DNA from: an uncultured delta proteobacterium
Lineage (GTDB): Bacteria > Myxococcota_A > Polyangia > Haliangiales > Haliangiaceae
NCBI GenBank assembly: GCA_963759105.1
Contig: CAVWXW010000004.1
Coordinates: 47,963-111,962 of the forward strand
Length of the DNA stretch: 64,000 bases
Direction of reading: 5' to 3'
Position 1 is the stretch's first letter. Each line of letters starts with the position of its first letter. The translations under genes and the position numbers were made by a program. The notes under the pieces were generated by a model that was given only the letters and a program-made list of their open reading frames with translations, did no database searches and was not told the DNA's origin. Positions 4,866-33,597 of the stretch are shown here, piece after piece.

Positions 4866-5444
<579 letters not shown>

Positions 5445-11916: not shown

Positions 11917-11926
11917 ACGCTGTCGA

Positions 11927-13021
11927 TCAGTCGCGCAGGAGGCGCGGCGAGCGCGACGACGATCCCTGCTCGACCGGCCGGTGCAGCACGATGGTGCGGC
12001 CCGCCTCGCGGCCGGCGGCGTGGGCGCCGGACACGCGCACGTTGCGCTGGCGCGTGACCATGCGCGGGTGGCGCGCGCGGAAGAACCGATCGAGGGCGGC
12101 GTCGCCGACCCAGACCAGGCCGGTGCCGCGCAGCTCGACGCGCTCGCCGGCGAGCTTGTCGCGAAAGCCGCGCACCACGCCCGACTGGTAGGCCAGCCGA
12201 TCGCGGCCGCTGCGCACCCGGGCGTCGCGCCGGTTCTCGTTCCACAGCCGCTCGGCGGTGGCGAGCAGGAACGCGTGGACGTGGACGGCCATCTCGACGT
12301 TCGGGCGCGTGCCGGCGACCTCGTAGACGTGCCCGCGCTTGCCCTCGAGCGGGAGATAGACCGGGATGCGGATCACCCGGACGAAGAAGAACTCGCGAGA
12401 CGAGCGCGACGATGTCGACCTCGACGCGCGTGGTGCGGCGCTGCGGATCGCCCAGGTGGCGGACCTCGAAGCTGCGCTCGCGCCGCCGGCCGCCTCGATG
12501 TTGTGGCGCAGCATCAGCTCGTGCGCCCTGCGCATCGCCGTCTCCGCCTCGTGCTGGTTGGGGCTGCCGGCGAGGGCGAGCAGCTTGCGGATCCGATCGA
12601 CCGCGCGGTCGACCTCGATCGGGTCGGCGTGCGCGCACCGGCGGGCCGGCCGCGCGCGCGTCGATGCCGCGCTCGGCGCAGATGCGGCGGAAGGTCTCGC
12701 CGTGCGCGCGTCTCGTCGCGGATGCCGAGCACCTCGTCGACGAACTGGTGCGCCATCTCGTGCTGCAGGACGCCGAGCACCTCCGGCCACGGCCGCTCGA
12801 CGACCAGCGCGCGCGACAGCTCGAGGGTGCGCGGCCGCGCGGATCCAGCGGCCGAGGCGGGTCGCCGATTCCGACAGCGCGATGACCGGCGCCTCGAGGC
12901 GGCCGCCGAAGCGCGCCCAGTTCTCCCAGTCGAACGACGACCGCAGCTCGCGCAGCAGCGCGGCCTCGAGCGCCGCCGACAGGGCTTCGAACGAAGGGGC
13001 GCCCTGCATCGCGCCCACCAT
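11927..13021 (-). CDS. SprT-like zinc-metalloprotease domain / DUF2786 family protein (frameshifted)
   Basis: HExxH in LGVLQHEMAHQFVDEVLGIRDE. DUF2786-like AIDRIRKLLALAGSPNQHEAETAMRRAHELMLRHNIEAAG. Intact C-terminal third ...FFVRVIRIPVYLPLEGKRGHVYEVAG...RLLRD*. Confidence 0.55.
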   Translation of the reverse strand: MVGAMQGAPSFEALSAALEAALLRELRSSFDWENWARFGGRLEAPVIALSESATRLGRWIRAAAHPRAVARAGRRAAVAGGARRPAARDGAPVRRRGARHPRRDARTARPSAASAPSAASTRARPARRCAHADPIEVDRAVDRIRKLLALAGSPNQHEAETAMRRAHELMLRHNIEAAGGASAASRSATWAIRSAAPRASRSTSSRSSREFFFVRVIRIPVYLPLEGKRGHVYEVAGTRPNVEMAVHVHAFLLATAERLWNENRRDARVRSGRDRLAYQSGVVRGFRDKLAGERVELRGTGLVWVGDAALDRFFRARHPRMVTRQRNVRVSGAHAAGREAGRTIVLHRPVEQGSSSRSPRLLRD

Positions 13022-13209
13022 ACTGTCGCGGGCTGACGACGGCGAGACTACCTACCGTCTGCCGGACCCCGCCATCCACGCGCGGCCGTCGTCCCGATCG
13101 GGTCACGGTTCGGTCACAATCTGACCCGGACGGCGGCCTCGGGCGGACACATTCCTGCCACGGCGCAGGAAGTTAGGTGCGCCGGAGCGGCCCTGTCTCA
13201 TCCTGGAGG

Positions 13210-14226
13210 CTCATGATCCGTACGAGCGACCTGCAAGTTCTCCGGACGTCGCTCACCGAGAGCGGCGTCTTCGAGCACAGGACGGCGCAGACCTGGGCGA
13301 AGCTCGTCGTGACTGCTCGCCGCCTCGGCCGTCGTGCTCGCGCTGGTGGCGGTCCTGCCCTGGTGGTGCGCGCTCGTGCTCGTCCCGCTCGCCGCGGTCC
13401 CGGCGGTCACCGCCGCGATGGTCGGCCACGAGGCCGCGCACGGCAGCTTCGCCTCGAGCAAGCGGCACAACGAGCTGGTCCTCCACCTGGTGTTTCCGCT
13501 GTTCGGCGGGCTCGGCGCCCAGTACTGGAAGCACAAGCACAACCACCTCCACCACGGCAATCCGAACGTCGTCGGGCGCGATCCGGACATCGACATGTGG
13601 CCGATGGCGCTGTCGAGCGACGAGCACGCCAGCTCCAGCCGCTTTCGCCGCTGGCTGCAGCGGACGATGCAGGGCCACCTGTTCTGGCCGCTCACGCTGT
13701 TCCTCGCCTTTTCGATGCGATACGACTCCTGGCGCTTCGTCGCGCGACGCGTGCGCGAGCGCGGGCTCGACGGCGCGCTCGCCGCCGACATCGCGTGCCT
13801 GGTCGGCCACTACGCCCTCTGGCTGGCCGTCCCGATGTGGCTGTTCGGCGTCGGGCCGGTCCTGCTGCTCTACGCCGGCCTGTGGGCGACCGCCGGCCTG
13901 CTCCTCGCGCTCATCTTCGCCCCGGCCCACATCGGCCTGCCGGTCCTGGACCGAGAGCAGCGGGGCGGATGGGAGCAACAGCTCGAAACCACGCGAAACC
14001 TGGTCATGCCCCGCTGGCTGTCCTGGTTCTTCGTCGGCCTCGACTTCCAGGTCGAGCACCACCTGTTTCCGAGAATCCCTCACCAGAATCTGGCCCGAGC
14101 CAGCCAGGTCGTCGCACCGTGGTGCGCGGACCTGGGAGCCCCGTACCACCAGCTCGATTACGGTTCGTCGATTCGCCAGGTCACGCGCCACATGAGACTG
14201 TCCTGGCAAGCAGTACCGGAGGTGGC
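13210..14226 (+). CDS. membrane fatty-acid desaturase (three His boxes); N-terminal frameshift near 13320; no stop before the next gene
   Basis: His boxes HEAAHGS, HNHLHHGNPN and QVEHHLFPRIPH, with hydrophobic segments. The frame reads through into CdnL. Confidence 0.7.
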
Positions 14227-14764
14227 GATGGTCAAGGGGAAAGCTTCCAAGCTCCAGAATCTCACTGTCGGTTCTCGCGTCTTCTATCCCGGCCACGGGG
14301 TCGCGAGCGTGACCGGCATGGAAGAGCGCGAGTTCGGCGGCGGCAAGCAGTCGTTCTACGTCCTGGAGCTGGAGCTCGATCGCGGCGTCAAGCTGATGCT
14401 GCCGGTGGGAAAGGTCGAACAGGCGGGCGTGCGCCCGCTGGTCTCGGCCCAGAAGGCCCGCGACCTCCTCAAGGTGGTCAAGGACGCGATCGCGCCGGTG
14501 GACCTCAAGTCGGATCCGGCGTCGCGCAAGCTGCGCGCCACCGGCTACGCCGAGGCGCTGCGCTCCGGCTCCGCCGATCGCTACACCGAGATCCTGGGGG
14601 AGCTCCTGTCGCGCTCGCGAGCGAGCAAGCTGTCCGCGGGCGAGCAGCAGTCCCTCACCCTGGCGCTCGCGATGTTCATCGGCGAGATGAGCGCGGCCCT
14701 GGACATGCAGCCCGACGAAGTGAAGGCGAACCTGGACATCAACACGGAGGCCCGGGTGCCATGA
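14227..14764 (+). CDS. cdnL: CdnL / CarD N-terminal-like RNAP-binding transcription factor
   Basis: MVKGKASKLQNLTVGSRVFYPGHGVASVTGMEEREFGGGKQSFYVLELELDRGVKLMLPVGKVEQAGVRPLVS matches the CarD_CdnL_TRCF RNAP-interaction domain. The 179-aa size is typical of CdnL. Confidence 0.75.
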
Positions 14765-16028: not shown

Positions 16029-16397
16029 TTATCTCACGTCCGTCGACAGGAAGGTCCAGAGACCTGAGCGCCGCGGCCGGTCGTCGAGTGCGTGCCCGGC
16101 CGGCCGCGGCGCCGCGGCCAGGCTGATTACTGCTGCTGCTGCTGCTGCTGGAGCAGCGGTCCGCACAGCGCCTGCTGCCGGCGCTCGACGTTGTTGGGCG
16201 ACTCCATCATCGCCGCCCTGGCGGCCGACCAGGTCGAGGCAGCGCAGGTACGAGTTCGGCTCGTTGGTCTGCTGGCCGGCCCGGACCGTGGCCGACCCGC
16301 CCGGGGTGCTGATGGTCCCCTCGGCCTCGGTCGACCGCGTCTGGCCGCCCGTGACGCGATCGAGGTCGCTCAGGTCGATGCTTTCGAACGTGGTCAT
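16029..16397 (-). CDS. precursor peptide with an N-terminal double-glycine (GG) leader; core region sequence uncertain
   Basis: MTTFESIDLSDLDRVTGG|QTRSTEAEGTISTPGGSATV.... Leader positions -4 V, -7 L, -8 D, -12 I, -15 F and GG at -2/-1 fit the PCAT-cleaved leader consensus. Canonical SD AAGGAG 5 nt upstream of the ATG. An alternate frame ends ...QQALCGPLLQQQQQQQ* (TAA at 16117). Confidence 0.6.
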   Translation of the reverse strand: MTTFESIDLSDLDRVTGGQTRSTEAEGTISTPGGSATVRAGQQTNEPNSYLRCLDLVGRQGGDDGVAQQRRAPAAGAVRTAAPAAAAAAVISLAAAPRPAGHALDDRPRRSGLWTFLSTDVR

Positions 16398-16489: not shown

Positions 16490-17341
16490 TCACTTGCGCG
16501 GAGCCTGCTGCAGGCGGACCTTGCCGACCGAGCCGACGCCGATCGTCTCTCCCTTGATCAGGCGATCGTCGACGTCGGCGTCGGCGACGACGAACTGGAG
16601 CGGCGGCTCCAGGTCGGTCGACACCGTGCGCACGATGGCCTCGAAGGTCGCGCCGCTGGCCGGATCCGTGGCCGCCACCCTGGTCCCCTCCTTGATCAGG
16701 CTGCGGTACTCGCTGTCGACCGCGAACCTGACCCACAGATCACGCGGATCGAACACCCGCGCCACCGGCGTGCCCGGCACCGCGACCTCGCCCTCCTTGA
16801 CCCGGATCATCGAGACCACGCCGTCGATGGGAGCGACCAGCGTGGCGCGGGCCAGGTGCTGCTCGAGCTGCTCGCGCTCGGCCACCGACTGGCGGTACTG
16901 GGCGGCCGAGCTGCTGTAGCTGGCGGACGCGCGGCTGCTGTCGAACCTGGACTGCCGGATGCCCTCGCGGGCCACCGCGCCGCGGCGGTAGAGGCGGCGC
17001 TGCATGCGCATGTCGCGCTTGGACGCGCGGATCTCGACGCCGGCGCGCCCCATCTCGGCGCGGGCCGCGTCCACGGCGGCGACCGCGCCGCTCAGCTGCT
17101 TGCGCACCTGGCTGTCGTCCAGCTTGGCGATCGGCTCGCCGGCGCGCACGCGCTGGCCGGGGTGGACGTAGAGCGCCACCACGCGTCCCTCGAACTCGGA
17201 GGCCACCACCTTCGAGTCGCGAGTGGTGACCACGCCGACGAACTCGAGCGGCGGCGGCGCGGGCCGGCGCGCGGCCGCGGGCGGCAGCGCCGCCGGCGCG
17301 GTGTCGTCGGCGGACGATGTCGGGGAGCCGCACGCGGCCAT
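16490..17341 (-). CDS. HlyD-family membrane-fusion / periplasmic adaptor protein (short, lipoprotein-like N-terminus)
   Basis: MAACGSPTSS...VVTTRDSKVVASEFEGRVVALYVHPGQRVRAGEPIAKLDDSQV...LVAPIDGVVSMIRVKEGEVAVPGTPVARVFDPRDLWVRFAV; biotinyl/lipoyl-like and beta-barrel MFP motifs; 283 aa, intact. Confidence 0.7.
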   Translation of the reverse strand: MAACGSPTSSADDTAPAALPPAAARRPAPPPLEFVGVVTTRDSKVVASEFEGRVVALYVHPGQRVRAGEPIAKLDDSQVRKQLSGAVAAVDAARAEMGRAGVEIRASKRDMRMQRRLYRRGAVAREGIRQSRFDSSRASASYSSSAAQYRQSVAEREQLEQHLARATLVAPIDGVVSMIRVKEGEVAVPGTPVARVFDPRDLWVRFAVDSEYRSLIKEGTRVAATDPASGATFEAIVRTVSTDLEPPLQFVVADADVDDRLIKGETIGVGSVGKVRLQQAPRK

Positions 17342-17377
17342 GACCGGCAGCGCGGCGGCGAAAGCTCGTGCGATTCT

Positions 17378-19630
17378 TCATGCGGCGTCCTCCCACTGGC
17401 GCGACCGGCGGTCGGTGGCGACCACCAGCTCGCGGTACGGCCCGTTCCGGCGCATCAGCTCGTCGTGCGAGCCGATCTCGACCAGCTGGCCGCCCACCAT
17501 GACCAGGATGAAGTCCGAGTTCTGGATCGTGGTCAGGCGGTGGGCGATGGTGATGCGGGTGCAGCGCAGGCGCTCGATGTTGGCGATGACCCGCGCCTCG
17601 GTGGCGTTGTCGAGCGCCGAGGTCCCCTCGTCGATGAACATGACCGCCGGCTGGCGCAGGATGGCGCGGGCCAGGGCGATGCGCTGGCGCTGGCCGCCGG
17701 ACAAGGACGCGCCGCCGTCGGCGACCGGCGTGTCGTAGCCCATCGGCATCTCGAGGATGTCGTCGTGCAGGCAGGCGACGCGGGCCGCCGCCATGATGCG
17801 ATCGAGATCGGCATCCGGCCGGGTCAGCGCGATGTTGTCGCGCAGGCTGGCCCCGAACACGTACGGGTGCTGCGGGACGAAGCCGACCTGCCGGCGAACG
17901 CCGCGCACGTCGACATCGGCCAGGCGGCGGCCGTCGTAGAAGACCGACCCGGAGGTCGGCTGGTACAGGCCGGCGATGAGATTCAGCAGCGTGGTCTTGC
18001 CGGAGCCGGACGGGCCCACGATCGCCACCGACGAGCCGGCCGGAATGTCGAGCGACACGCCGTTGACCACGAGCGGCATGTTGTGGGCGTAGCGGAAGCT
18101 GAGATCGCGAGTGGAGATCTCGCCGCGGATCTCGTGGGCGGTGTGGATGGTGTCCGGGTCCTGCTCGGTCGCGGTCTCGAGCACGTCGTCGACGCGGTCG
18201 ATGTGCGGGCGGGCCAGCTGGAGATCGAGCGCGCTCTCGACCAGCTGCGAAAGCGGGCCGAACAGGCTGGTGGCCAGCGAGTTCATGGCCAGCATGGTGC
18301 CGAGCGACATCTCGCCCTTCATGACGGACATGGCGCCGACGGTGAGGAGCAGCGTGGGGGCCAGGGTGGCGATCGCCTGGCGGATGGAGTCGACCCGCGC
18401 GTCGACGACCCCGCGGCGCAGCCGGATGTTGAGCTCGTCGGCATACAGGTTCGACCAGTGCTCGACCGCCTGCTGCTCGACGCCGGAGCACTTGAGCGTC
18501 TCGATGCCCCCCAGGAACTGGACCAGGAAGCTCTGCGACTTGGCCTGGCGTTCGAGGTTCTCCGCCATCAGCCGCATGTACTTGCCGCGCGCCAGCACGT
18601 AGACGAGGATCTCGAGCGTCACCAGCACGACCACGATGATGCCGAGCTTGGCGCTGACGGCGAACACGATGGCGCCGTACAGCAGGACGAAGGTGCCGTC
18701 GAGCAGCGCGGCCAGGCTCTTGGACGTCACCATCTCGCGCACGGTGCCGTTGCTGCCCAGGCGCATCATGAGGTCGCCGTCGGAGCGCTGCTGGAAGAAG
18801 CGGAACGGCAGCTTGACCAGGTGATCGAGGAAGCCGAGCGTCGAGCGCACGTCGAGCACGGTGCGCAGGTGCATGAGCAGGTACGCGCGCATCACCTCGG
18901 AGATGGCGTTGAAGCCGACCATCATGACGACCGCGAGGCCGGCCACCATGAGCAGGTTGTAGTCGGAGCGCGGAACCACCTGATCGACGATGACGCTGGT
19001 GAGCAGCGGCAGCACCAGCGCGAGGGCGCGCAGGAGCAGCGAGATGATCACGATGCGGTCGAACACGCGGCGCTCGGACAGGAGCTCGCGCGCGTAGCGG
19101 CGCAGCCGGCTGAGGTTGCCGGCGCCCGTCTGGCTGCGGAAGTCCGGCGCCGGCGAAAGCTCCAGCGCGACGCCGGTGAAGCTATCGGCGAACTGCGGCA
19201 GCGGGATGTCGCGCACGCCGACGGCCGGGTCGAAGATCCTGACCGCGCCGTTCTTCACGCGATCGAAGACGACGAAGTGATTGAACTCCCAGTGCAGGAT
19301 GCTGCCGCGCGCGAGCAGCGGGAGCTTCTCGATGTCGACCTTGACGCCGCGGCCGATGAGGCCGAGGCGGGTGCCGGCCTCGAGGATGTTGCGCGCGGTG
19401 ACGCCGTCGCGGGCCAGGCCGAGCTCGTCGCGCACGCGCGCCAGCGCCACCGTGCGTCCGTAGTAGCCCAGCACCATGGCCAGGCAGGCCGCGCCGCAGT
19501 CGGTCCACTCCATCTGCTGGACGAAGGGGATCTTGGGCGCGCCGCCGAAGCCGATGCGGCGCAGCGCGGGGAAGCGGCCGGCGATGGCGCCCTGTCCGTT
19601 CGGATCCTGTGCGGGGCTGCTGGTGGTCAA
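17378..19630 (-). CDS. peptidase-C39-domain ABC transporter (PCAT; bacteriocin/peptide processing-and-export ATPase); intact 750 aa
   Basis: N-terminal C39 domain with catalytic Cys (FVQQMEWTDCGAACLAMVLGYYGRT). Six TM segments. Walker A GPSGSGKTTLLNLIAGL. ABC signature LSGGQRQRIALARAIL. Walker B VMFIDEGTSALD. Confidence 0.9.
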   Translation of the reverse strand: MTTSSPAQDPNGQGAIAGRFPALRRIGFGGAPKIPFVQQMEWTDCGAACLAMVLGYYGRTVALARVRDELGLARDGVTARNILEAGTRLGLIGRGVKVDIEKLPLLARGSILHWEFNHFVVFDRVKNGAVRIFDPAVGVRDIPLPQFADSFTGVALELSPAPDFRSQTGAGNLSRLRRYARELLSERRVFDRIVIISLLLRALALVLPLLTSVIVDQVVPRSDYNLLMVAGLAVVMMVGFNAISEVMRAYLLMHLRTVLDVRSTLGFLDHLVKLPFRFFQQRSDGDLMMRLGSNGTVREMVTSKSLAALLDGTFVLLYGAIVFAVSAKLGIIVVVLVTLEILVYVLARGKYMRLMAENLERQAKSQSFLVQFLGGIETLKCSGVEQQAVEHWSNLYADELNIRLRRGVVDARVDSIRQAIATLAPTLLLTVGAMSVMKGEMSLGTMLAMNSLATSLFGPLSQLVESALDLQLARPHIDRVDDVLETATEQDPDTIHTAHEIRGEISTRDLSFRYAHNMPLVVNGVSLDIPAGSSVAIVGPSGSGKTTLLNLIAGLYQPTSGSVFYDGRRLADVDVRGVRRQVGFVPQHPYVFGASLRDNIALTRPDADLDRIMAAARVACLHDDILEMPMGYDTPVADGGASLSGGQRQRIALARAILRQPAVMFIDEGTSALDNATEARVIANIERLRCTRITIAHRLTTIQNSDFILVMVGGQLVEIGSHDELMRRNGPYRELVVATDRRSRQWEDAA

Positions 19631-19642
19631 GGTCGGCTCCTG

Positions 19643-21163
19643 TCAGAAGATCTTCTCGAGGGCAGGGACGAGCGCGACCAGCACGCGCCGCTTGCGCACG
19701 CTGACCTCGGCCTTGGCGGTCATGCCGTCGTGATAGGTGTAGGTCTTGTCGCGGCTCTCGAAGGTCCGCGACGTCAGCCGGGCGCGCACGATGACGACCG
19801 GCCCCTTGAGGTCGAGCGCGTCGGCGATCTTGTCGCCCACGTAGCGGCGCGCCTCCTGCGGCCCGATCACCTCCTGGCCGACCTCGCCGATGCGGATCTT
19901 CTCGTTCGTCTTCTCGTAGCCGGGGATGTTGAACTGCAGGATCATCCCGGGCCGCAGCCGCGGGCGGTCCTGGCCGGGCAGGAGCGCGATCATCGTCGGC
20001 ATGGTGTTGGCGTCGGCCACGGTCAGGATGTAGCTGCCGGCCTCGAGCCGGCTGCCCTCGCGCACGCGCAGGTCGCTCACCACGCCGTCGCGCGGCGCGC
20101 GGATCGAGCGCGCGTCGAGCACCTGCTTGGCCTTCTGCCGGCGCGCGGCGATCGTCGACAGCGTCGACTTGGCCTCCTGGCTGCCCGGGTCGAACAGGAA
20201 CGTGCCGAGCTGGCGCTCGTACTCGATGAGCACCTCGCCCAGCTCGGCCGACTCGGAGTCGTCGTGCAGCTGGACGAGCAGCTCGCCGGCCTTCACCGTC
20301 TGGCCCGGCTGGACGTAGGTCGCCACCACGGTGCCGCCGGCGCGCGCGGTCACCTCGGTCCCCTCGATGCGGACCACCGCGGACCCGGTGCTGTACTGGT
20401 TGACCTTGCCGATGATCCCGTAGAGCAGGCCGGCGGCCAGGCCGATCAGCACCGCCGGGTAGACCCGGTTGATCCAGCGCGGCGACAGATCGAGCAGCGC
20501 GCCGTCGCGGCGCTGCTCGCGGTGCCGCTCGAGCGCCTGCTCGCGGAACAGGGAGTCCTGGGGGCCGACGCGCTCGCCGCGGGCCAGCGCGGCGTGGACC
20601 GCCGAGAGAAGCAGCGGCCCGACCTGGGCGCCGACGGCGGTCAGGACCATGCCCTCGCGCTGGGTGAACGGCGCGTCGCTGTCGGCGCGCACCGCGAGCA
20701 CGACCGCGATCACGATCTCGCCGGCCACGATCGGGTGGGCCAGGATCTTCTCGTGGCCGGTGCCGCCCGGGTTGTCGACCTCGGGCATGTAGACCGGGCA
20801 GCTGGCGGCCGGCTGGGCGCAGATCTGCTGGCGGTGATACACGGCGAGGCTGGCCAGGCTGTCTGCGTCGGCGCCCGCGCTCCACGGCGCGCCGGTCAGC
20901 GGATCTGCCGTCAGGCAATGCACGCGCACGCAGCCGACCAGCTCCGACAGGCCGTGGCCCAGGACGCGCAGCGACGAGGCCAGGTCGCTCTGCAGCGCGA
21001 TGCGGCGCACCAGCGACAGCACCGCGCCCGGATCGTCCAGCGGCGGCAGCGAGCGCAGCGGCGGGCGCTTCGCGGAGCCCGGCACCGGCGGCGGCCCGCT
21101 CTGCGGCGGTGCTGCCCGCGGGTTGACGGCTGTGTCGGAGTCGTTGACCACCCGGTTGTCCAT
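19643..21163 (-). CDS. HlyD-family secretion protein with an N-terminal GAF-like domain
   Basis: C-terminal MFP: TM YPAVLIGLAAGLLYGIIG, ...VVRIEGTEVTARAGGTVVATYVQPGQTVKAGELLVQL...RAPRDGVVSDLRVREGSRLEAGSYILTV. The N-terminal about 200 aa (LASLAVYHRQQICAQPAASCPVYMPEV...EIVIAVVLAVRADSDAPFTQREGMVLTAVGAQVG) resembles GAF. Confidence 0.7.
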   Translation of the reverse strand: MDNRVVNDSDTAVNPRAAPPQSGPPPVPGSAKRPPLRSLPPLDDPGAVLSLVRRIALQSDLASSLRVLGHGLSELVGCVRVHCLTADPLTGAPWSAGADADSLASLAVYHRQQICAQPAASCPVYMPEVDNPGGTGHEKILAHPIVAGEIVIAVVLAVRADSDAPFTQREGMVLTAVGAQVGPLLLSAVHAALARGERVGPQDSLFREQALERHREQRRDGALLDLSPRWINRVYPAVLIGLAAGLLYGIIGKVNQYSTGSAVVRIEGTEVTARAGGTVVATYVQPGQTVKAGELLVQLHDDSESAELGEVLIEYERQLGTFLFDPGSQEAKSTLSTIAARRQKAKQVLDARSIRAPRDGVVSDLRVREGSRLEAGSYILTVADANTMPTMIALLPGQDRPRLRPGMILQFNIPGYEKTNEKIRIGEVGQEVIGPQEARRYVGDKIADALDLKGPVVIVRARLTSRTFESRDKTYTYHDGMTAKAEVSVRKRRVLVALVPALEKIF

Positions 21164-21305
21164 GGAGGCCGGTTCTGCAACCGAAGGGCCATGCGCGCCG
21201 GCCGCGGAATCGGCGCTTGCGCCGCCCGACGGCGCCCGCCGGCCGTCCGCATGCGGAGCGGGACCCCACGTGCCGCCGAGCGCGGTCGGCGATCCGGCCC
21301 GACGA

Positions 21306-22916
21306 CTAATCGAGCACCTCGATGTCGTAGCGCTTCAGGATGTCGCCGGTCAGCGACTGCAGCACGGCCACCGACTGGTGGTAGTCGGCGATGGCGCGCA
21401 CGCGCGACAGCCGGGCCTCGTCGAGGTCGTCCTGGCGGTCGAACAGCTGCTGGCTGGTCGACTTCCCGACGCGGAACAGCGCGCGCTCGGAGGTGAGGCT
21501 GCCCTTGGCCAGCTCGATCGCCTTTGTCGCGACCTGGGCCCGCTTCTGCGCCGCGCGGATCTGGTGCACGGTCAGCACGATGGCGGACGCGATCTCGCGG
21601 CGGAGCTCCGCGCGCTCGATGCTGACGTCCTGGTGGCGCAGCAGGGCGGCGTCGCGGCGCCCGCGCGCCGTGTTGGCTCCGATGTCGATCGAGAAGACCA
21701 GCGCCGCGGTGGCGTTGACGTTGGCGCCGCGGTCCAGGGCGCGGAACGCCTCGTCGACGTTGCTGCCGGCCGCGGTGGCGGCGGCCGAGACGGTGAAGTC
21801 GAGCCGGGGCCGCACGCCGTCGCGCGCGACCCGCACCTCGATCTTCGAGTCCTCGTCGTCGAGCTCGATCGCGGCGAGGGCGTAGTTGCGGGCCAGGCCG
21901 CGCTCGACCAGCTTTCCCACCGCGTAGGTCTCGGCGCCGGCGCCCGGCAGATCGGCCGGCCACAGCGCGATCGCGCCGCCGCCGATCTCGAGGCCGGCCA
22001 GCTTGCGCAGCTCGAGTGCCTGCTCCTCCAGCACCAGCTCGGCGCGCAGCTGCGCCTCCTCGCGGACCGCCATCGTGTACTCGGCCAGCTTGAGGTCACC
22101 GGTCGGGCGGCCGCCCTCTTTCACGACCTGCTCGGTCTCCTTGTGCAGCTTGCGCACCGCCACCAGCGAGGAGCGCTTCACCTCGAGGGCCAGGGCGGCG
22201 TGGGCAAGCTCCCAGTAGCCGCGCACGACGTCGCGGGTCAGCTCGCCGGCGGCCACCTTGGCGCGCAGCGCGGCGGCCGAGGTCCGGACAGCCGCCTGCT
22301 CGCGATCGGCGCGCGCGATCGGGCGGCCGAAGCCGCGCAGGAGCGAGTGGTTGAGGACCAGCCGACCCGATGCCTGGCTGACCTGGGAGCTGGACTGCTT
22401 CGGCTCGGCGCCGCTCATGTCCAGGTTCTCGACCAGGCTGGTCTCCTGCGAGCGGGCGGCGTTCGCCTCGAGTCGCAGCTGGCCGCCGGTGGGCAGGTCG
22501 CGGATTAGCGCGGCCCTGCCGCCGACGCGCTCCTGCTCGACGACCTGCACCGGCTGGCCCGGGACGCGATCTCTCGTCACCCGCGCCCCGTCGATGGCCA
22601 GCTCGAGCTGCCAGTCGTCGCGGCCGCGCACCGCCCGCTCCTCGGCCCGCGCGATGGCGGCGCTGGTGCGCGCGCGGGCCAGGCCAGGCGAGCGCAGGAC
22701 GGTGACGTCGATCAGCTGGTCGACTCCGATCCGCTCGACCGGCTCCGCCTGCGGCGCGGCCTCCTGGGTCTGCGGCGCCTCCTGCGGGCCCTGCGCCCCC
22801 GGTTGTCGCCTGGCGCGCCGCCTGTCGGCGGCCAGCGGCGGCGCGGCGACGCAGACCGCGGTGACGACCAGCGCCGCCGAGCACCATCTCGCCTCGCGGA
22901 TGCTGCTCAGTGGCAC
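21306..22916 (-). CDS. TolC-family outer-membrane efflux protein
   Basis: 536 aa from a GTG start (overlaps the upstream gene by 10 nt). Signal peptide PLSSIREARWCSAALVVTAVCVAAPPLAA. Two repeated coiled-coil / beta-barrel halves typical of OEP family. Ends ...QSLTGDILKRYDIEVLD*. Confidence 0.65.
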   Translation of the reverse strand: MPLSSIREARWCSAALVVTAVCVAAPPLAADRRRARRQPGAQGPQEAPQTQEAAPQAEPVERIGVDQLIDVTVLRSPGLARARTSAAIARAEERAVRGRDDWQLELAIDGARVTRDRVPGQPVQVVEQERVGGRAALIRDLPTGGQLRLEANAARSQETSLVENLDMSGAEPKQSSSQVSQASGRLVLNHSLLRGFGRPIARADREQAAVRTSAAALRAKVAAGELTRDVVRGYWELAHAALALEVKRSSLVAVRKLHKETEQVVKEGGRPTGDLKLAEYTMAVREEAQLRAELVLEEQALELRKLAGLEIGGGAIALWPADLPGAGAETYAVGKLVERGLARNYALAAIELDDEDSKIEVRVARDGVRPRLDFTVSAAATAAGSNVDEAFRALDRGANVNATAALVFSIDIGANTARGRRDAALLRHQDVSIERAELRREIASAIVLTVHQIRAAQKRAQVATKAIELAKGSLTSERALFRVGKSTSQQLFDRQDDLDEARLSRVRAIADYHQSVAVLQSLTGDILKRYDIEVLD

Positions 22917-23935
22917 GGATCCCACGCCGTGCCGTTGTCGCCGATGTCGATGAGATTGCCGATCTCCTCGATGTAGAGGTCGAGGTCCTCCGCGCGACAC
23001 TGCGACAGCGACGTGTTGTTGATCGCGATGACCGAGCCGCCGACGGAATACAGATTCACGGCCAGCTCGTAGATGTCGGTGAGGGTCGTGTTGCCCTCGA
23101 CGGCCAGGTTGCCGCCGACGTGGTTGAACGTCGCGGTGAAGCCGTTGAGGTTCTGCAGCGCGCCGTTGCGCTCGATGCTCAGGTTGCCGCCGACGGTCTG
23201 GAGGTCGCTGAACGCCTTGAGCTCGGTCATGTCCGGGTTGTCGGCGATGCGGACCTCGCCCTGCACGCTGACCACGTTGAGCTGCAGCGCGCGCAGGCCG
23301 GTGTTGCCGGCGACGACGAGCTCGCCGGCCGACTCGATGCGCCGGACGGTCTGCAGATTTGTGAGGCCGCTGTTGTTCTCGACCCGGAACGAGCCCTCGA
23401 CCCGCTCGAGCGTCTCGAGGTCCTGGAGGCCCTCGAGGGCGCTGTTGTCGCGGATCGACAGGCCGCCGGTGCCGACGTCGCGCAGGGCGCGCAGGCCGGC
23501 GAGGCTGACCAGCTGCGGGTTCTTGCTGATCGTCACCCGCGCGACGGTGTCGGTGCGGTCGAGCCCGTAGACGTCGCCCAGCATCGGGTTGTTGTCGATC
23601 TCGACGTGCTGCAGCACCTTGACCCGGTCGAGCCCGGCGAAGCTGAGCAGCTGCGGGTTGTCCTTGACCCGCAGCACGTTGGCCTGGCGCAGGTAGAACA
23701 GCGGCTCGAGGTCGGCCAGGTCGGAGCCGACCACCTCGACGTCGCCCGAGACGGTGAAGCACTTCTGCGGCAGGGAGCGGGCGTCGCTCGCGCTGCGCAC
23801 GATGATGTTGGCGTTGAGGGTCTCGCAGTCCTCGTCGATGTCCGTGGGCTGCTGGTAGCCGACGTCGGTGGGCATGCAGCCGAACAACCCGACGGCGGCG
23901 ATCGCGATGGCGGAGAGGTGGATCGTGGGGCGCAT
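22907..23935 (-). CDS. lipoprotein with leucine-rich-repeat-like (receptor L-domain-like) repeats
   Basis: MRPTIHLSAIAIAAVGLFGC lipobox. Repeating units ...NPQLxSxxGLxxLxxV..LxIxxNxxL about every 24 aa. 343 aa. Confidence 0.6.
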   Translation of the reverse strand: MRPTIHLSAIAIAAVGLFGCMPTDVGYQQPTDIDEDCETLNANIIVRSASDARSLPQKCFTVSGDVEVVGSDLADLEPLFYLRQANVLRVKDNPQLLSFAGLDRVKVLQHVEIDNNPMLGDVYGLDRTDTVARVTISKNPQLVSLAGLRALRDVGTGGLSIRDNSALEGLQDLETLERVEGSFRVENNSGLTNLQTVRRIESAGELVVAGNTGLRALQLNVVSVQGEVRIADNPDMTELKAFSDLQTVGGNLSIERNGALQNLNGFTATFNHVGGNLAVEGNTTLTDIYELAVNLYSVGGSVIAINNTSLSQCRAEDLDLYIEEIGNLIDIGDNGTAWDPCH

Positions 23936-23949
23936 GAACGCCCCAAAGA

Positions 23950-23964
23950 GCACGGCCTGTGCCA
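23950..23964 (-). promoter_or_regulatory. putative sigma54 (-24/-12) promoter for the lipoprotein-TolC-HlyD-PCAT operon
   Basis: Minus strand reads TGGCAC-AGGCC-GTGC (GG-N10-GC spacing) about 15 nt upstream of the lipoprotein ATG. The -12 element is GTGC, not the consensus TTGC. Confidence 0.45.
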
Positions 23965-24126
23965 TGGCCCGCGATGCGCAAGTGGGCGGGCCGCGCGGCG
24001 TCCGGCGCCGGCCTCGCCTGCCGCGCGGCGGCGCTCGGGGGGCTCGCCCCCGATCGTTGCTGCACACGGTCGGCGCAAGCCCGCGCCGGCCGGCGGGCGT
24101 TGTGTTGTAGGCTGGTGATCGTGGAG

Positions 24127-25464
<1,338 letters not shown>

Positions 25465-25633: not shown

Positions 25634-26611
<978 letters not shown>

Positions 26612-26613
26612 GA

Positions 26614-26656
26614 GACGAGAAAACCATCGGCGACCGGGCCGCATGGGTCGGCCCGG
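26614..26656. terminator. bidirectional rho-independent terminator between the kinase gene (+) and precursor peptide 2 (-)
   Basis: Hairpin CCGGGCCG-catgggt-CGGCCCGG (26634-26656), flanked by an A-run on the plus strand (gagaaaacc) and a T-run on the minus strand. Confidence 0.6.
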
Positions 26657-26671
26657 CCGCCGATCGTGGTT

Positions 26672-26887
26672 CTAGCGGCGCCTTCGCCCGCCGCGCGGGT
26701 CCTGAAACATCTGCATCATCATCATCATCATGAGCATGTCGTTGCTGTTGTCCTGAGGAGGAGGGCATGGGCACTGCATGTTGAAGAAGTTCCTGTCTCC
26801 GCGGCGTCCACCACCGCATCCACCAGCAACGTCGTCGAGCTCCTCGAGCGCAAACTCTGGCATCTTGTTGTCGTCGTCCATGGGCAT
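26672..26887 (-). CDS. precursor peptide 2 with a double-glycine leader and a Met/Cys-rich core
   Basis: MPMDDDNKMPEFALEELDDVAGG|CGGGRRGDRNFFNMQCPCPPPQDNSNDMLMMMMMMQMFQDPRGGRRRR*. Leader positions -4 V, -7 L, -8 E, -12 F, -15 M. SD AAGGAAGG upstream. Terminator downstream. 36 nt downstream of the beta-barrel A gene. Confidence 0.65.
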   Translation of the reverse strand: MPMDDDNKMPEFALEELDDVAGGCGGGRRGDRNFFNMQCPCPPPQDNSNDMLMMMMMMQMFQDPRGGRRRR

Positions 26888-26923: not shown

Positions 26924-28270
26924 TCAGAAACGAAAGACGGCCTGGCCGGTCGCGCCGATGAAGGCGTCCACGGCCCCGATGACGTCCTGATCGAGGTCCT
27001 CGTCGAGCGCGACGGCCAGGTCGCCCGAGCCCTCGAAGTCGAGGGCGAAGCGCGTGTAGGCGGCGGCGACGCGGACCAGGATGCGCTCGAGCAGCTCGAC
27101 CTCGAGCCCCACCTCTCCTCTCAGCCCGTAGCTGCCGGCGGCGCCGAAGGCCGCCTGGTCGGTGATACCGGACGTGGCGACCGTGTGGAGGTAGCTGCCG
27201 GCTCCGAAGACCGTCGCGCGGCCGAGCTCGTAGCGGACACCGCCGCCCGCGTCGATGAAGGCGTAGCGCGCGTCCGGCACCATCAGGCCGGGCGGCCGGA
27301 TGCCGACCTCGTAGCGCAGCTCGCTGTAGCCGAGCTGGAAGGTGGGCACCCAGCGCTTCTTGACGCGCAGGCGGCCGCGCAGGGCCGCGGCCCACTGCAT
27401 CTGGGTGACCGGCAGCTCGACCCCCTCGCTGCCGCCGAGTGACATGCCGGCGTTGATCGACCTGTCGATCGCCACCGCCAGCCCGATGGCCGGCTCACCC
27501 GGGGTGCTGGCCTCGGCCTCGACGTGCAGGCCCGGCGACGGGTTGGCCGACAGCGAGGCGTCGCCGACCAGGCCCGGCTCCTGCGAGAAGGCGAGCTTGC
27601 GCGCGGTGGCCGAGAGGCCGACCCCGGCCTCGAAGACCAGCGGGAAGCGGCGCTCGGGGGCCGCCTTGCCCCGCTTGCGAGCGGCCTCGGGGCGCGCCTT
27701 GCTGACGTCGCGGTCGGCGATGTCGACCCGGCCCTGCGCCTGCACGTCCGCGCGGTGCTGCGGCTGCGGCTGCGGTTCCGGAACCGCCTGGCCGGGCGGG
27801 CCGTCGTGGGTGCGGTCCGGATCGATCCACACAAGTAGATCTCCCAGCAGCCGCGCGATGCGCGCCCGCGCGGCCGGCGTCATCTCGGCGGTGGCCAGCG
27901 GCACCAGCACCGCCCCGACGCTCTCGCCGTCACCGGCGCGCAGCACCGACAGGCTCAGCGCGTAGGCCTCGCTGGAGGCCGCGACCTCGCCGACGACGAC
28001 AGCGTCGGCGCCGGCCATGCGGGCCATGGCCAGCGCCGCGGCCGGCTCGCTGCCGTCGGTCCCGGCCAGCTCGCGGGCCTGCTCGAGCCGCGCGGCCGGC
28101 ACCACCGCATAGCGGGCGCCGACCACGTCCACCACGACCGCGCGCGCCTCGCTGGCGACCACCTCGGGGCCGGCGAAGGGTGCGACGGCGATGAGCCTCG
28201 TCTCCGCCCGCGCGGGGGCGGCGGCGGTGAGGACAGCGAGTACGACGAAGCACGCGAGCAGCCTGGACAT
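26924..28270 (-). CDS. outer-membrane beta-barrel protein with an N-terminal periplasmic domain (paralog A)
   Basis: Signal peptide MSRLLACFVVLAVLTAAAPARA. N-terminal domain IAVAPFAGPEV...AGADAVVVGEV. Alternating beta-strand pattern. Ends ...GATGQAVFRF* (OMP-type terminal Phe). 448 aa. Confidence 0.6.
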   Translation of the reverse strand: MSRLLACFVVLAVLTAAAPARAETRLIAVAPFAGPEVVASEARAVVVDVVGARYAVVPAARLEQARELAGTDGSEPAAALAMARMAGADAVVVGEVAASSEAYALSLSVLRAGDGESVGAVLVPLATAEMTPAARARIARLLGDLLVWIDPDRTHDGPPGQAVPEPQPQPQHRADVQAQGRVDIADRDVSKARPEAARKRGKAAPERRFPLVFEAGVGLSATARKLAFSQEPGLVGDASLSANPSPGLHVEAEASTPGEPAIGLAVAIDRSINAGMSLGGSEGVELPVTQMQWAAALRGRLRVKKRWVPTFQLGYSELRYEVGIRPPGLMVPDARYAFIDAGGGVRYELGRATVFGAGSYLHTVATSGITDQAAFGAAGSYGLRGEVGLEVELLERILVRVAAAYTRFALDFEGSGDLAVALDEDLDQDVIGAVDAFIGATGQAVFRF

Positions 28271-28283
28271 TGGTCCCTCCACC

Positions 28284-29708
28284 TCAGAGTCGGAAGCCGA
28301 GCATGACGACGCCGCCGACGTAGGTGTCGGTGGCTCCACTGACGTCAACGTCCGAGCTCTCGTCGAGCCCGGTCGCCCACGCGCCGTCGCCGTTGAACGC
28401 GAGGATGATGCGCTGATAGGTCGCGGCGACGCGCACGAAGGTCGTGTCGCCGGCGTCGATCTCGAGGCCGACCTCGCCGCCGAAGCCGTGAAAGCGCGAG
28501 CTGCCGAACGCGGTGGCCGCCGTGATGCCGCCAGCGCTGAGCACGTGCAGGTACCACAGGTCGGCGCTGATCGAGAGGCGGTCGTCGCGCAGGCTGAGCC
28601 GCGCGCCGCCGCCGACATCGGCGTAGGCGTAGCGCGAGTCGGGGATGAGCAGCCCGTTGGGCCGGTTCGAGATGGCGAAGCCGAGCTGGTGATAGCCGGC
28701 GCCGCCGCGCACGTTCACGCGCTTGTGCACGGCGCGCCGGATCATCAGCCGGGCGCCGATGTGCTGGAGCGAGATGCCGAGCTGCTTTGTCTGCCCGCCG
28801 GCGGGAAAGGAGACCGAGGCGCCGATCGACCGCTGGTACACGAGGTCGGCGGACAGGCCGAGCGGGTTGACGTCGACGGTGCCGGACACGGCGACGCCGC
28901 CCGACGGGCTGCCCGACATGCTGAGCGGGCGCTCGTCCTCGGCCAGGTCGATCTGGTGCGCGAACTGGAGCTGGCGCGCGATGGCGGCCACGCCGACCGC
29001 GGCGCGCACCTGCATGGCCGGCGGCCGGCGCTTCGCCGCCCTGGCTCTGGCCCGGTCGCGCTGCTCGGCGACCGACCACTTCTCGACCGAGGCCTCCTGC
29101 TTCTGCTGGGCGGCGGTGAGCGACGCGCGCGCGGCGCCGGGGGCCTCGTTGCCGATCTGGCCGGGCTGGGTGATCACGGCCGCGGGGGCGGCCTGATCCA
29201 CGCCGGCCGCGACGGCGCCGTCGGTCTCGCCGTTGAGCGGCTCGGTCCAGTCGATGAGGTCGACCAGCTCGTCGATGATCGCCTCGCGGGTCGCTTCCGA
29301 AACGCGCTTGCCGCGGGCGTTGACGCTGAAGCGGTCCATCACGCGGCCGGTGCGCCCCTCGCGCACCGCGATGGTCAGCTTGCCGCCCTGCACCTCCCCC
29401 TCGATGATCGCGTCCGCGCCTACCTTCCTGGCCACCTGGGCCACGGACTTCATCGACTCCTTCGTGACGTTGAGGCGGCGGCGCGCGAGCCTGTACCTGC
29501 CGTACGGCAGGACCTCGTACAGGTCGGAGACGATCTCGAGGATCACGTCGTGCATGGCCTTCGACGTGGGGGCCGGCCCCACGAAGTCGGCGACCACGAC
29601 GCGCCGCTCCTGCTCCGCGCGCGCCCGGGGCGGCGCGGCGACCAGGACGGCAAACGCCGCCGCGAGCGCGGCGATGCGAGTGCAGGGCACGTGGATGTCT
29701 CGACTCAT
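28284..29708 (-). CDS. outer-membrane beta-barrel protein with an N-terminal periplasmic domain (paralog B)
   Basis: MSRDIHVPCTRIAALAAAFAVLVAAPPRARA. VVVADFVGPAP...VGADAIIEGEV. Ends ...GGVVMLGFRL*. Clearly paralogous to 26924..28270. Confidence 0.6.
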   Translation of the reverse strand: MSRDIHVPCTRIAALAAAFAVLVAAPPRARAEQERRVVVADFVGPAPTSKAMHDVILEIVSDLYEVLPYGRYRLARRRLNVTKESMKSVAQVARKVGADAIIEGEVQGGKLTIAVREGRTGRVMDRFSVNARGKRVSEATREAIIDELVDLIDWTEPLNGETDGAVAAGVDQAAPAAVITQPGQIGNEAPGAARASLTAAQQKQEASVEKWSVAEQRDRARARAAKRRPPAMQVRAAVGVAAIARQLQFAHQIDLAEDERPLSMSGSPSGGVAVSGTVDVNPLGLSADLVYQRSIGASVSFPAGGQTKQLGISLQHIGARLMIRRAVHKRVNVRGGAGYHQLGFAISNRPNGLLIPDSRYAYADVGGGARLSLRDDRLSISADLWYLHVLSAGGITAATAFGSSRFHGFGGEVGLEIDAGDTTFVRVAATYQRIILAFNGDGAWATGLDESSDVDVSGATDTYVGGVVMLGFRL

Positions 29709-29726: not shown

Positions 29727-29744
29727 GTGCAACGGCGATGCCAC
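29727..29744 (-). promoter_or_regulatory. near-consensus sigma54 promoter upstream of the beta-barrel B / A / peptide 2 transcription unit
   Basis: Minus strand reads GTGGCAT-CGCCG-TTGCAC (TGGCAT-N5-TTGCA, with GG-N10-GC spacing), about 20 nt upstream of the ATG at 29708. Confidence 0.55.
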
Positions 29745-29947
29745 GCAGCATCACCGCGCGATCGCGAGCGCGGCCCGGTGCTGTCGCTGTACACGGGTAG
29801 CGCGGCGCGGGGGAAAATTCCCGTGGGCCCAGACCGCTGTCGCGCCAGGGCAAAACGAAAGCGCCGCCGCCCTGACGGACGACGGCGCGGAGTTGCGCTG
29901 GAGAGCGGATGGACGGTGGATGGAGAGCGGATGGAGAGCGGACGCGC

Positions 29948-30661
29948 TTACTGGCCGGCGACGTCGATGAGCAGGTGCACGCTGCCGGCGTCGATCTGGT
30001 TCAGGTCGGTCGGATTGTCGTCTCCGCAGACCGAGGCCTTGATGTAGCCCGGCGCAGTCTGGCCGAGGCTGTTGGCTCCGATGACGAAGCGGTGGCCGCC
30101 GTTCTCGCCGTCCGGGACGCGGACCTCGACCGCCAGCTTGGTCCCGGCCGGGACCATGGCGTCGATCGGGAACTCCACCACGCTGGCGAGCGTGTCGGCG
30201 ACGGTCTGGCTGGCTGTCGCCAGCGTCGTCAGGTCGCCGTTCTGGATGTCTCCGGTGACGGTGTGGAGCTCGATCTCGACCGGCTGTCCCTGGCCGTTGC
30301 CGGACTGGGCCCGCTCCACGCCCACATCGACCCGCGTGACGTGGAAGCCGGATGCGAGGCCAGCGGTCGCGAGATCGAAGACGCGGTACCAGCTGTTGTC
30401 GAAGTGGATGTCCTGCTCATCTGCGCACACGATCGACGCGTCCGGTTCGATGAGCTCGGACGTCGTCTGGGACAGGACCCGGTTGCCGCTCGGCTGTGCA
30501 TCGGGCCGCGGCCCGGCATCCGCCTCCGGCTCGTCTTCGGTGTCGTCCGGCGGCGGAGTGTAGACGGAGGCGTCGGGATCCGCGCCCGCCGGTCCCGCAG
30601 CCGGCGGCGCCGGAAGCCCGCACCCGAGAAGAGCGAGGGGAATCAGCGCGGAGAGGTTCAT
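29948..30661 (-). CDS. lipoprotein of unknown function
   Basis: MNLSALIPLALLGCG lipobox, then a Pro/Asp/Glu-rich linker and a Cys-containing domain (IVCADEQ...ASVCGDDNPTD). 237 aa. Confidence 0.55.
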   Translation of the reverse strand: MNLSALIPLALLGCGLPAPPAAGPAGADPDASVYTPPPDDTEDEPEADAGPRPDAQPSGNRVLSQTTSELIEPDASIVCADEQDIHFDNSWYRVFDLATAGLASGFHVTRVDVGVERAQSGNGQGQPVEIELHTVTGDIQNGDLTTLATASQTVADTLASVVEFPIDAMVPAGTKLAVEVRVPDGENGGHRFVIGANSLGQTAPGYIKASVCGDDNPTDLNQIDAGSVHLLIDVAGQ

Positions 30662-30912
30662 GCCGGACCCGAATTGCAAGGGTCGTTCCTCGCGCGGTGG
30701 CGGCCAAGATCGCGAGGCGCTGCGCGGATCGCGGCGATCGAGCCGCCGGCCCGGGTCGCGCCCTCCCCAGCGCCCGTCGACCGCGGTCGGCATGCGCGGC
30801 CGCCGGACCAAAAAAAGAAGCCCCGCGCTGCACCGCGACATGCTGGCCGCGCGCAGGGGGGCTCCCTGGATGGCGACCGCTGGGCGGCCGCACATCTCGA
30901 GTCGGGCCGGAG

Positions 30913-31167
30913 CTACTTGGTGGGCTCCGCCGGCTTCTCCTTGTCCTTCGACTTGTCGGCCGGCGCCTCGGTGCCGTCCTTGGCCTTCGACTTGTCCTTG
31001 TCCTTGGCCTTGGCGTCTTCCTTGGCCTTCGACTTGTCCTTGTCCTTGGCCTTCTCGTCCTGGGACGGAGCGGGCTTGTCGGCCGGCGGGGTCGACTGGG
31101 CGCTGGCCGCGAGCGGCGCAACCGAGAGGGCGGCAGCGAGGAGCGAAACAGACAGCAGCTTCTTCAT
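30913..31167 (-). CDS. small secreted Lys/Asp-rich repetitive protein
   Basis: MKKLLSVSLLAAALSVAPLAASA signal peptide. ...EKAKDKDKSKAKEDAKAKDKDKSKAKDG... encoded by a ~39-bp tandem DNA repeat. Confidence 0.5.
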   Translation of the reverse strand: MKKLLSVSLLAAALSVAPLAASAQSTPPADKPAPSQDEKAKDKDKSKAKEDAKAKDKDKSKAKDGTEAPADKSKDKEKPAEPTK

Positions 31168-33037: not shown

Positions 33038-33197
33038 GCTGGTCGTCGTGCGCGTCTGGATCCGCGGCCACCGGTTTCAGGCGGCGGTCGCAGCACCAGC
33101 GTGGAGCCGATCACCGGACACGCCGCGGAGACCGCGTGCAGCAGTCCGCGCCGTGCGGCGTCGCGCTGGCGCCCAGACTTTCATCGCGCGCAACGGT

Positions 33198-33270
33198 CGG
33201 TACGGGGGGATTCGAACCCACCACTTGTCCGGGTTTGGGCCGGATGCCTCTTCCAGTTGGGCCACGTACC
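33198..33270 (-). tRNA. tRNA-like gene, anticodon uncertain (CAA or CCA region)
   Basis: GGTACGTGGCCCAACTGGAAGAGGCATCCGGCCCAAACCCGGACAAGTGGTGGGTTCGAATCCCCCCGTACC. Has a T-loop GGTTCGAATCC and a GGTACG/CGTACC acceptor. Confidence 0.4.
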
Positions 33271-33275
33271 GCATC

Positions 33276-33346
33276 GGCACCACCGAGCAGGATCGAACTG
33301 CTTCACCGAGGTTCGGAGCCCCGGGCCGCGATCCACGCGCGGTGGC
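33276..33346 (-). tRNA. tRNA-Arg (anticodon CCG)-like
   Basis: GCCACCGCGCGTGGATCGCGGCCCGGGGCTCCGAACCTCGGTGAAGCAGTTCGATCCTGCTCGGTGGTGCC. Anticodon stem-loop CGGGG-CTCCGAA-CCTCG. T-arm GCAGTTCGATCCTGC. The D-arm is short, possibly because of indels. Confidence 0.5.
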
Positions 33347-33424
33347 AGAGAGACCGCCCCGGGTAACGCTCCCGGTTCTTCGAGGGTTGCAGCCCCGAGC
33401 CAGCCCTTGCTGGTGACGGCCGAG

Positions 33425-33499
33425 TGGTGGAAGCGAAGGGAATCGAACCCTCATCGCTCGGATGCGAGCCGAGTGCTCTCCCGTTGAGCTACACCCCCA
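33425..33499 (-). tRNA. tRNA-Ala (anticodon CGC)-like, with an encoded CCA
   Basis: GGGGGTGTAGCTCAACGGGAGAGCACTCGGCTCGCATCCGAGCGATGAGGGTTCGATTCCCTTCGCTTCCACCA. The D-arm, the anticodon loop CTCGCAT and the T-arm are good. The acceptor strands do not pair, which may be a sequence error. Confidence 0.45.
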
Positions 33500-33508
33500 C
33501 GAGTCGGT

Positions 33509-33597
33509 TGGCGGAAGCGACAGGAGTTGAACCTGCAAGGCCGCAAAGCTCGTCCGAGTTCGAATCGGGTGCCATCACCACGTTGGCTTGCGCTTCC
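33509..33597 (-). tRNA. tRNA-Ser (anticodon CGA), class II
   Basis: GGAAGCGCAAGCCAACGTGGTGATGGCACCCGATTCGAACTCGGACGAGCTTTGCGGCCTTGCAGGTTCAACTCCTGTCGCTTCCGCCA. Acceptor GGAAGCG/CGCTTCC. Long variable arm. Encoded CCA. Confidence 0.75.

Follow-up and report, generated by a model that had tools for sequence, protein, structure and literature searches.

Class II microcin and colicin V-type loci (CvaA-CvaB-TolC) encode a precursor peptide with a double-glycine (GG) leader, an ATP-binding cassette (ABC) transporter with a C39 peptidase domain, an HlyD adaptor, and a TolC-type channel. Their precursor operon is separate from the exporter and is co-transcribed with a non-exporter partner, a small inner membrane immunity protein. 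A second point of comparison is the cyanobacterial EbfG/PteB system, in which several small GG-motif proteins leave the cell by C39 ABC export and contribute to the biofilm matrix rather than to classic killing. Here we describe a locus with likenesses to both in an uncultured delta proteobacterium of the Haliangiaceae (assembly GCA_963759105.1). It lies in a stretch of 64,000 nucleotides (nt) of contig CAVWXW010000004.1, referred to below as the window, and is built around two tandem genes, A and B, that precede the gene for a GG-leader peptide, precursor peptide 2.

The genes required for microcin-type export (GG-leader precursor, C39 ABC transporter, membrane fusion protein, and TolC-type channel) are all present, and here too the precursor operon is separate from the exporter and includes a non-exporter partner. 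While the microcin partner is a small inner membrane protein, the partner found here is a pair of outer membrane barrels of 450 to 470 amino acids. The locus also differs from microcin loci in its predicted control, which involves sigma-54, an activator with an FHA domain, and a Ser/Thr kinase, in having two HlyD adaptors and two extra lipoproteins, and in its poly-Met/RRRR peptides, which match no known family. It has no sequence relation to EbfG/PteB, for which we know of no barrel partners. We regard it as a GG-peptide export locus of the bacteriocin type, with an outer membrane barrel pair that is without precedent and with sigma-54/FHA/kinase control. To our knowledge, an obligatory co-transcribed outer membrane barrel pair is part of no described microcin-type export locus, and a literature search returned no description of the locus type, the barrel family, or the peptide family. 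We propose that A and B may be the producer-side surface partner of the peptides, in docking or self-protection. We give this function a probability of about 0.4; our confidence in the anatomy of the locus is much higher.

Genes A and B and precursor peptide 2

The three genes are arranged as follows.

28284 to 29708, minus strand: gene A, outer membrane protein of 474 amino acids, with a Sec signal peptide cleaved between …PRARA and EQE; its parts are an LpoB/TolB-N-like periplasmic domain (residues ~33 to 155), a disordered linker (~156 to 231), and a 10-stranded barrel (232 to 474)
26924 to 28270, minus strand: gene B, paralogue of A, 448 amino acids, with the same architecture and a signal peptide cleaved between …APARA and ETR
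26672 to 26887, minus strand: precursor peptide 2, 71 amino acids, with leader …EFALEELDDVAGG and core CGGGRRGDRNFFNMQCPCPPPQDNSNDMLMMMMMMQMFQDPRGGRRRR

Both barrel open reading frames (ORFs) have a strong coding signal, with a G+C content at third codon positions of 0.95 to 0.96 in a window of ~72% G+C overall, and together they span exactly the interval 26924 to 29708. Over their full length, A and B share 32% identity (E=2e-50), and they are anciently duplicated outer membrane proteins, as expected from a sequence-only reading of the window that had called them tandem paralogues. That reading had also assigned a signal peptide and an N-terminal soluble domain to each protein, and the motifs that it quoted are found in both A and B. 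The signal peptides end in signal peptidase I-type sites (ARA before E), and without a Cys at position +1 there is no lipobox. The C termini, GFRL in A and VFRF in B, each directly before the stop codon, are typical C-terminal signals of barrel proteins. Scans of A and B against Pfam and NCBIfam gave no match above threshold, nor did a PDB sequence search with A give a match.

The entire precursor peptide 2 reads MPMDDDNKMPEFALEELDDVAGG, with the leader ending in …LDDVAGG, followed after the cleavage point by CGGGRRGDRNFFNMQCPCPPPQDNSNDMLMMMMMMQMFQDPRGGRRRR. Members of its family share a GG leader, a Cys/Asn/Gln-rich core, a poly-Met stretch, and an RRRR tail; they are cationic and hydrophobic, with up to eight Met in a row and a fixed tetra-arginine end. 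Such peptides could be membrane active, metal binding, or redox sensitive. Nothing scored above threshold in Pfam and NCBIfam scans of the peptide, and the poly-Met/RRRR peptides fit no known family.

Transcription unit of A, B, and the peptide

Three elements on the minus strand frame the transcription unit.

29786 to 29822, minus strand: conserved upstream elements GGGAATTTTCCCCC … CCGTGTACAGC, candidate enhancer (upstream activating sequence) sites for the FHA-domain activator
29729 to 29743, minus strand: sigma-54-type promoter of A, TGGCAT-N5-TTGCA; the ATG of A follows 21 nt downstream
26626 to 26664, minus strand: intrinsic terminator directly 3' of the peptide stop codon, with a 16-bp stem and a T-rich tail (-42.6 kcal/mol, z=-4.9)

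Each of the related loci L001 to L006 has a single exact copy of TGGCAY-N5-TTGC, in every case directly upstream of the A homologue, and it likewise precedes A in L011, where sigma-54 promoters are found upstream of X (a lipoprotein gene preceding A) and of A. An alignment across related loci revealed the block GCGTGGCAYnnCCGTTGCACT before A to be invariant, with variable flanks, and a second conserved block, GGGAnTTTTCCCCC…CCCGyGkACAGC, to lie 50 to 80 nt upstream of the A promoter. The features of a sigma-54 operon are thus found together: a GG-N10-GC promoter at the right distance, its retention in orthologous loci, and an adjacent gene for an enhancer-binding protein.

B follows A after 13 nt, and the peptide gene follows B after 36 nt. 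The minus strand has just three terminator-like hairpins, one after X (29861 to 29888), one after the peptide, and a weak one after a Lys-rich gene located farther upstream. That A, B, and the peptide form a single transcript from the sigma-54 promoter is well supported by the conserved promoter before A, the short gaps, and the strong terminator 3' of the peptide. The co-transcription with precursor peptide 2 postulated in the sequence-only reading is borne out by this predicted unit, in which the terminator comes only past the peptide.

The motif CCGTGTRCAGC, common to the promoters of A and the exporter, was considered as a shared enhancer and not used, as the degenerate pattern occurs 13 times in the GC-rich window. 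Its position upstream of both promoters is suggestive.

Synteny in related loci

Word-indexed searches of 5.8 billion proteins, together with scans of genomes and metagenomes, yielded related loci, which we numbered with the prefix L. The protein searches found no more than 16 relatives of A and 13 of B, annotated as hypothetical or not at all, one of them from a Kofleriaceae metagenome-assembled genome. The genome and metagenome scans added only two and six loci, respectively, so that the close subfamily is rare. In every related locus with enough downstream DNA, the order is X, A, B, and one to seven peptide genes; contigs that extend far enough also include the exporter and the activator, the latter with the kinase or without it. 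The loci counted were the window, L001, L002, L003/L004, L005, L006, L007, L008/L014, L009, L011, L017, L018, L019, L022, and L023, with G+C contents from 59 to 72%. In the more distant L011 (59% G+C), seven tandem GG-leader genes lie 3' of the barrel pair (positions 11743 to 13532); six of the seven peptides are Met rich with a basic tail, with Met runs of up to eight and RRRR or RRKR ends.

The reverse search gave the same picture. A profile built from 20 peptides and run against the 5.8 billion proteins matched 15 proteins only, and all of the contexts examined that keep the upstream DNA are loci of this type. The pairing with GG-leader ORFs, for which a check of synteny had been suggested, holds throughout the close subfamily, whose members always co-occur with a peptide. 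The shared transcript and the recurrence of the trio in related loci argue that A and B are dedicated partners of the peptide.

Predicted structures of A and B

AlphaFold2 models of A and B were calculated with alignments of 25 to 26 homologues. The predicted local distance difference test (pLDDT) scores averaged 74.6 (A) and 72.7 (B). Confidence is low in the signal peptide and in a linker of ~55 residues, and most barrel blocks score 80 to 95. In each model, an alpha/beta domain is joined by a disordered linker to ten long strands. According to the models, A and B are outer membrane barrels with a tethered periplasmic domain, and the C-terminal beta-barrel anticipated from the sequence alone is recovered as a ten-stranded one. 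The N-terminal domain has the alpha-beta periplasmic fold of the LpoB, TolB N-terminal domain, PelC, or CsgG type. In contrast to LpoB, PelC, and CsgG, which are lipoproteins, the domain in A and B follows a signal peptidase I signal peptide and is fused through the linker to an integral barrel, and no Pfam or NCBIfam model matched it.

The nearest structural relatives of the barrel are the 10-stranded OmpT, Pla, and OpcA, the top fold matches, with 8 to 13% identity. The models have the 10-stranded, vase-shaped barrel of the omptins (PF01278). OmpT cleaves protamine between basic residues, and so an omptin-like protease that cleaves the Arg-rich peptide, for its maturation or detoxification, could be imagined. 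However, the Pfam Omptin profile matched neither A nor B at E≤1, identity to the omptins is only 8 to 12%, loop L2 of the barrels is just 2 residues long, no His is invariant among 26 A and B sequences or in the wider family, and sequence comparison shows that the conserved residues do not match the omptin Asp-Asp/Asp-His catalytic set. Omptin membership, to which the fold matches and the Arg-rich peptide had pointed, was dropped for want of a profile match and a conserved His, and we consider such proteolysis highly improbable. A and B further differ from the omptins and OpcA in their added periplasmic domain and linker. The OMP_b-brl profile (PF13505) reached 18.5 bits with A, compared with a cutoff of 28.7, and gave no match with B; distant relatives also fell below threshold.

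The wider barrel family and the surface loops

A full profile search of the barrel family returned 1567 cluster representatives at E≤1e-3, 213 of them at E≤1e-30, most of which have the two-domain length of A and B. The distant relatives scanned matched no Pfam family, and their cluster names are "hypothetical protein" only, plus one implausible name. Three distant members that we inspected (E values of 1e-43 to 1e-74) lie in unrelated contexts, without peptides or exporters; A and B are therefore specialized members of a large uncharacterized barrel family. One distant relative, the stand-alone barrel P0054 of 657 amino acids (L013, 8207 to 10974), is encoded directly downstream of a peptide-methionine sulfoxide reductase (PMSR) gene; with the poly-Met peptides in mind this neighborhood attracts attention, and it may be a coincidence.

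With the N-terminal domain in the periplasm and ten strands, loops L1 to L5 are predicted to face outward. We compared 27 peptide-linked sequences with 133 distant family sequences and found 23 positions conserved in A and B yet not in the distant members. Nine of these fall in predicted loops L3 to L5, where 2 would be expected (p=3e-5), namely R349, P350, G352, L353, G394, T396, L448, and D453, with neighboring residues. This enrichment in predicted outer loops suggests that the subfamily has its function on the outside of the cell.

The family can also be read in another way. A and B might keep a housekeeping role of their family, for example in structure or tethering, and be co-induced to reinforce the outer membrane without contacting the peptide. 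The size of the family, the solitary distant members in unrelated contexts, and the fact that most conserved loop motifs are common to the whole family are in keeping with this. It is set against by the strict reciprocal synteny across wide divergence and by the concentration of peptide-linked-subfamily residues in surface loops, and we regard such recruited envelope proteins as rather unlikely.

Exporter, regulators, and lipoproteins

Upstream and downstream of the barrel genes lie the other parts of the locus.

16490 to 23964, minus strand: exporter operon, transcribed from a separate, likewise conserved sigma-54-type promoter (CTGGCAC-N5-sTGCTTT, 23950 to 23964)
22907 to 23935, minus strand: first gene of the exporter operon, Receptor-L/leucine-rich repeat (LRR)-like lipoprotein
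21306 to 22916, minus strand: TolC-type channel (OEP)
19643 to 21163, minus strand: HlyD adaptor
17378 to 19630, minus strand: C39-peptidase ABC transporter (Peptidase_C39, ABC_membrane, ABC_tran)
16490 to 17341, minus strand: second HlyD adaptor
23974 to 25464, plus strand: sigma-54 enhancer-binding protein (Sigma54_activat/FHA) whose N-terminal part is an FHA domain; it presumably activates the three promoters
25634 to 26611, plus strand: Ser/Thr protein kinase that presumably signals to the activator through its FHA domain
29948 to 30661, minus strand: gene X, conserved lipoprotein with lipobox LLGC, a separate sigma-54 unit
30676 to 30690, minus strand: promoter of gene X, GGAAC-N5-TTGCA, conserved; a perfect 12-bp palindrome also lies upstream of X
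29861 to 29888, minus strand: terminator of gene X

The conserved promoters of A, the exporter operon, and X, grouped around the activator and the kinase, suggest that the region is a small sigma-54 regulon of three units. The closest NCBIfam model to the C39-peptidase ABC transporter is NHLM_micro_ABC1, with a score below the cutoff. The protein encoded by X consists of an acidic linker and a domain of ~170 amino acids, with nothing above threshold in Pfam or NCBIfam and only chance-level matches in a PDB sequence search.

The exporter bears on whether A and B could be the pore or translocon that takes the processed peptide across the outer membrane. They share a transcript with the peptide, and their N-terminal domain has the fold of PelC and CsgG, proteins whose rings lie below secretion pores. 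Against this, the co-regulated exporter operon encodes a TolC-type channel and two HlyD adaptors, which recur in all loci long enough to include them, and the nearest structural relatives of the 10-stranded barrels are not protein-conducting pores, OmpT and Pla being proteases and OpcA an adhesin. An exit route through A and B is therefore very unlikely.

The regulators bring in a further explanation: once exported, the peptide would serve for autocrine or quorum signaling, and A and B would bind it at the surface and relay the event through their LpoB-like domains to the kinase/FHA-activator circuit. The locus is indeed centered on a kinase and a sigma-54 activator of the FHA type, the residues peculiar to the subfamily are found in surface loops, LpoB, which the N-terminal domain resembles, spans the periplasm on a long disordered linker, and ligand and receptor in one operon are a common design. 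However, the kinase is short, with no membrane or periplasmic sensor part visible, which leaves no visible path from periplasm to cytoplasm, and arrays of up to seven divergent peptides suit effectors better. A signal receptor thus seems rather unlikely.

Several side observations concern this region. Directly downstream of the second HlyD gene, a further GG-leader ORF (16029 to 16397, minus strand) has the leader MTTFESIDLSDLDRVTGG followed by QTRSTEAEG…; it is presumably "precursor peptide 1," has neither poly-Met nor RRRR, and shows a weaker coding signal; none of the related loci extends this far. Upstream of X, a Lys-rich secreted protein of 84 amino acids (30913 to 31167, minus strand) consists almost wholly of Lys/Asp/Glu/Ala/Pro repeats (…KAKDKDKSKAKEDAKAKDKDKSKAKD…), and the protein is conserved in this place in L002, L007, and L008.

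Proposed role of the barrel pair

Docking or self-protection is favored for several reasons. First, the precursor shares its unit with a non-exporter partner, the exporter forms a second unit, and the regulators lie between the two; this layout mirrors that of microcin and class II bacteriocin loci, in which the immunity gene is the partner of the precursor. Second, there is no other immunity candidate; between 26.6 and 31.3 kb, no small immunity-type ORF with a coding signal was found besides the secreted Lys-rich protein. Third, the peptides are cationic and hydrophobic.

In the proposed mechanism, the kinase/activator pair would switch on the A-B-peptide and exporter operons. The C39 ABC transporter would remove the leader by cleavage behind GG, and the TolC-type channel would let the cationic, hydrophobic peptide out of the cell. 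A and B probably pair up as a heteromer, as suggested by the opposite net charges of their N-terminal domains (+3 in A and -5 in B), and would act on the peptide at the surface of the producer through their subfamily-specific external loops. By binding or holding the peptide, they would either spare the producer's outer membrane from damage or retain the peptide there.

Several observations weigh against this role. Known bacteriocin immunity proteins are small inner membrane or periplasmic proteins, not outer membrane barrels. Two related loci indicate that the pair is not strictly required: the more distant L009 has a lone barrel straight after the exporter and one peptide, and L005, a Logan contig, has a lone barrel with B absent. 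In L005 (1155 to 2753), the stop codon of the A homologue P0015 is missing and its reading frame continues into that of the peptide; either a genuine deletion and fusion or a faulty assembly may account for this. Finally, loop L5 is strongly acidic (net charge -5 to -6, motif LD.S.D.DV.GA.D) and was considered as a subfamily-specific site for the Arg tail; it was rejected because the motif is family-wide and occurs also in members without a nearby peptide. To judge from its distribution, the motif is more likely structural or calcium binding. The actual immunity or receptor component may just as well be one of the two lipoproteins of the same regulon, X or the Receptor-L/LRR lipoprotein.

The barrel pair and the poly-Met/RRRR peptides could also make a stable surface complex, in which the peptide is captured as a ligand or subunit of an outer membrane heteromer. 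We consider this quite unlikely; if true, the locus would be an undescribed kinase/sigma-54-controlled device for display or kin signaling in Myxococcota rather than a toxin with its immunity.

The sequence-only reading had left three options for the barrels. Of these, proteins unrelated to the peptide are excluded by the reciprocal synteny and the shared promoter, an exit route is disfavored by the TolC-type channel and the ten strands, and a receptor or immunity pair is, tentatively, the best reading.

Other features of the window

At 4884 to 5422, a run of ~420 G (90% pure) passes straight into 119 A, which explains the extreme GC/AT skew of the 4- to 6-kb bin. The run is almost certainly a sequencing or assembly artifact, and continuity across it is not to be trusted. 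One ORF at 13334 to 14764 (plus strand) combines fatty acid desaturase, CarD/TRCF-RID, and CarD C-terminal domains; this would be an uncommon fusion, unless a sequencing error has joined two genes. Three clustered tRNA genes lie at 33197 to 33597 (minus strand).

Significance

With its clean sigma-54/FHA/kinase wiring and three conserved promoters, the system would lend itself readily to reporter fusions, given a suitable host. If the barrels bind or neutralize the peptide, they would be the first outer membrane-level partner, for immunity or docking, of a GG-leader peptide. Such a role would also be the first functional handle on a barrel family of 1567 cluster representatives that has no Pfam model.

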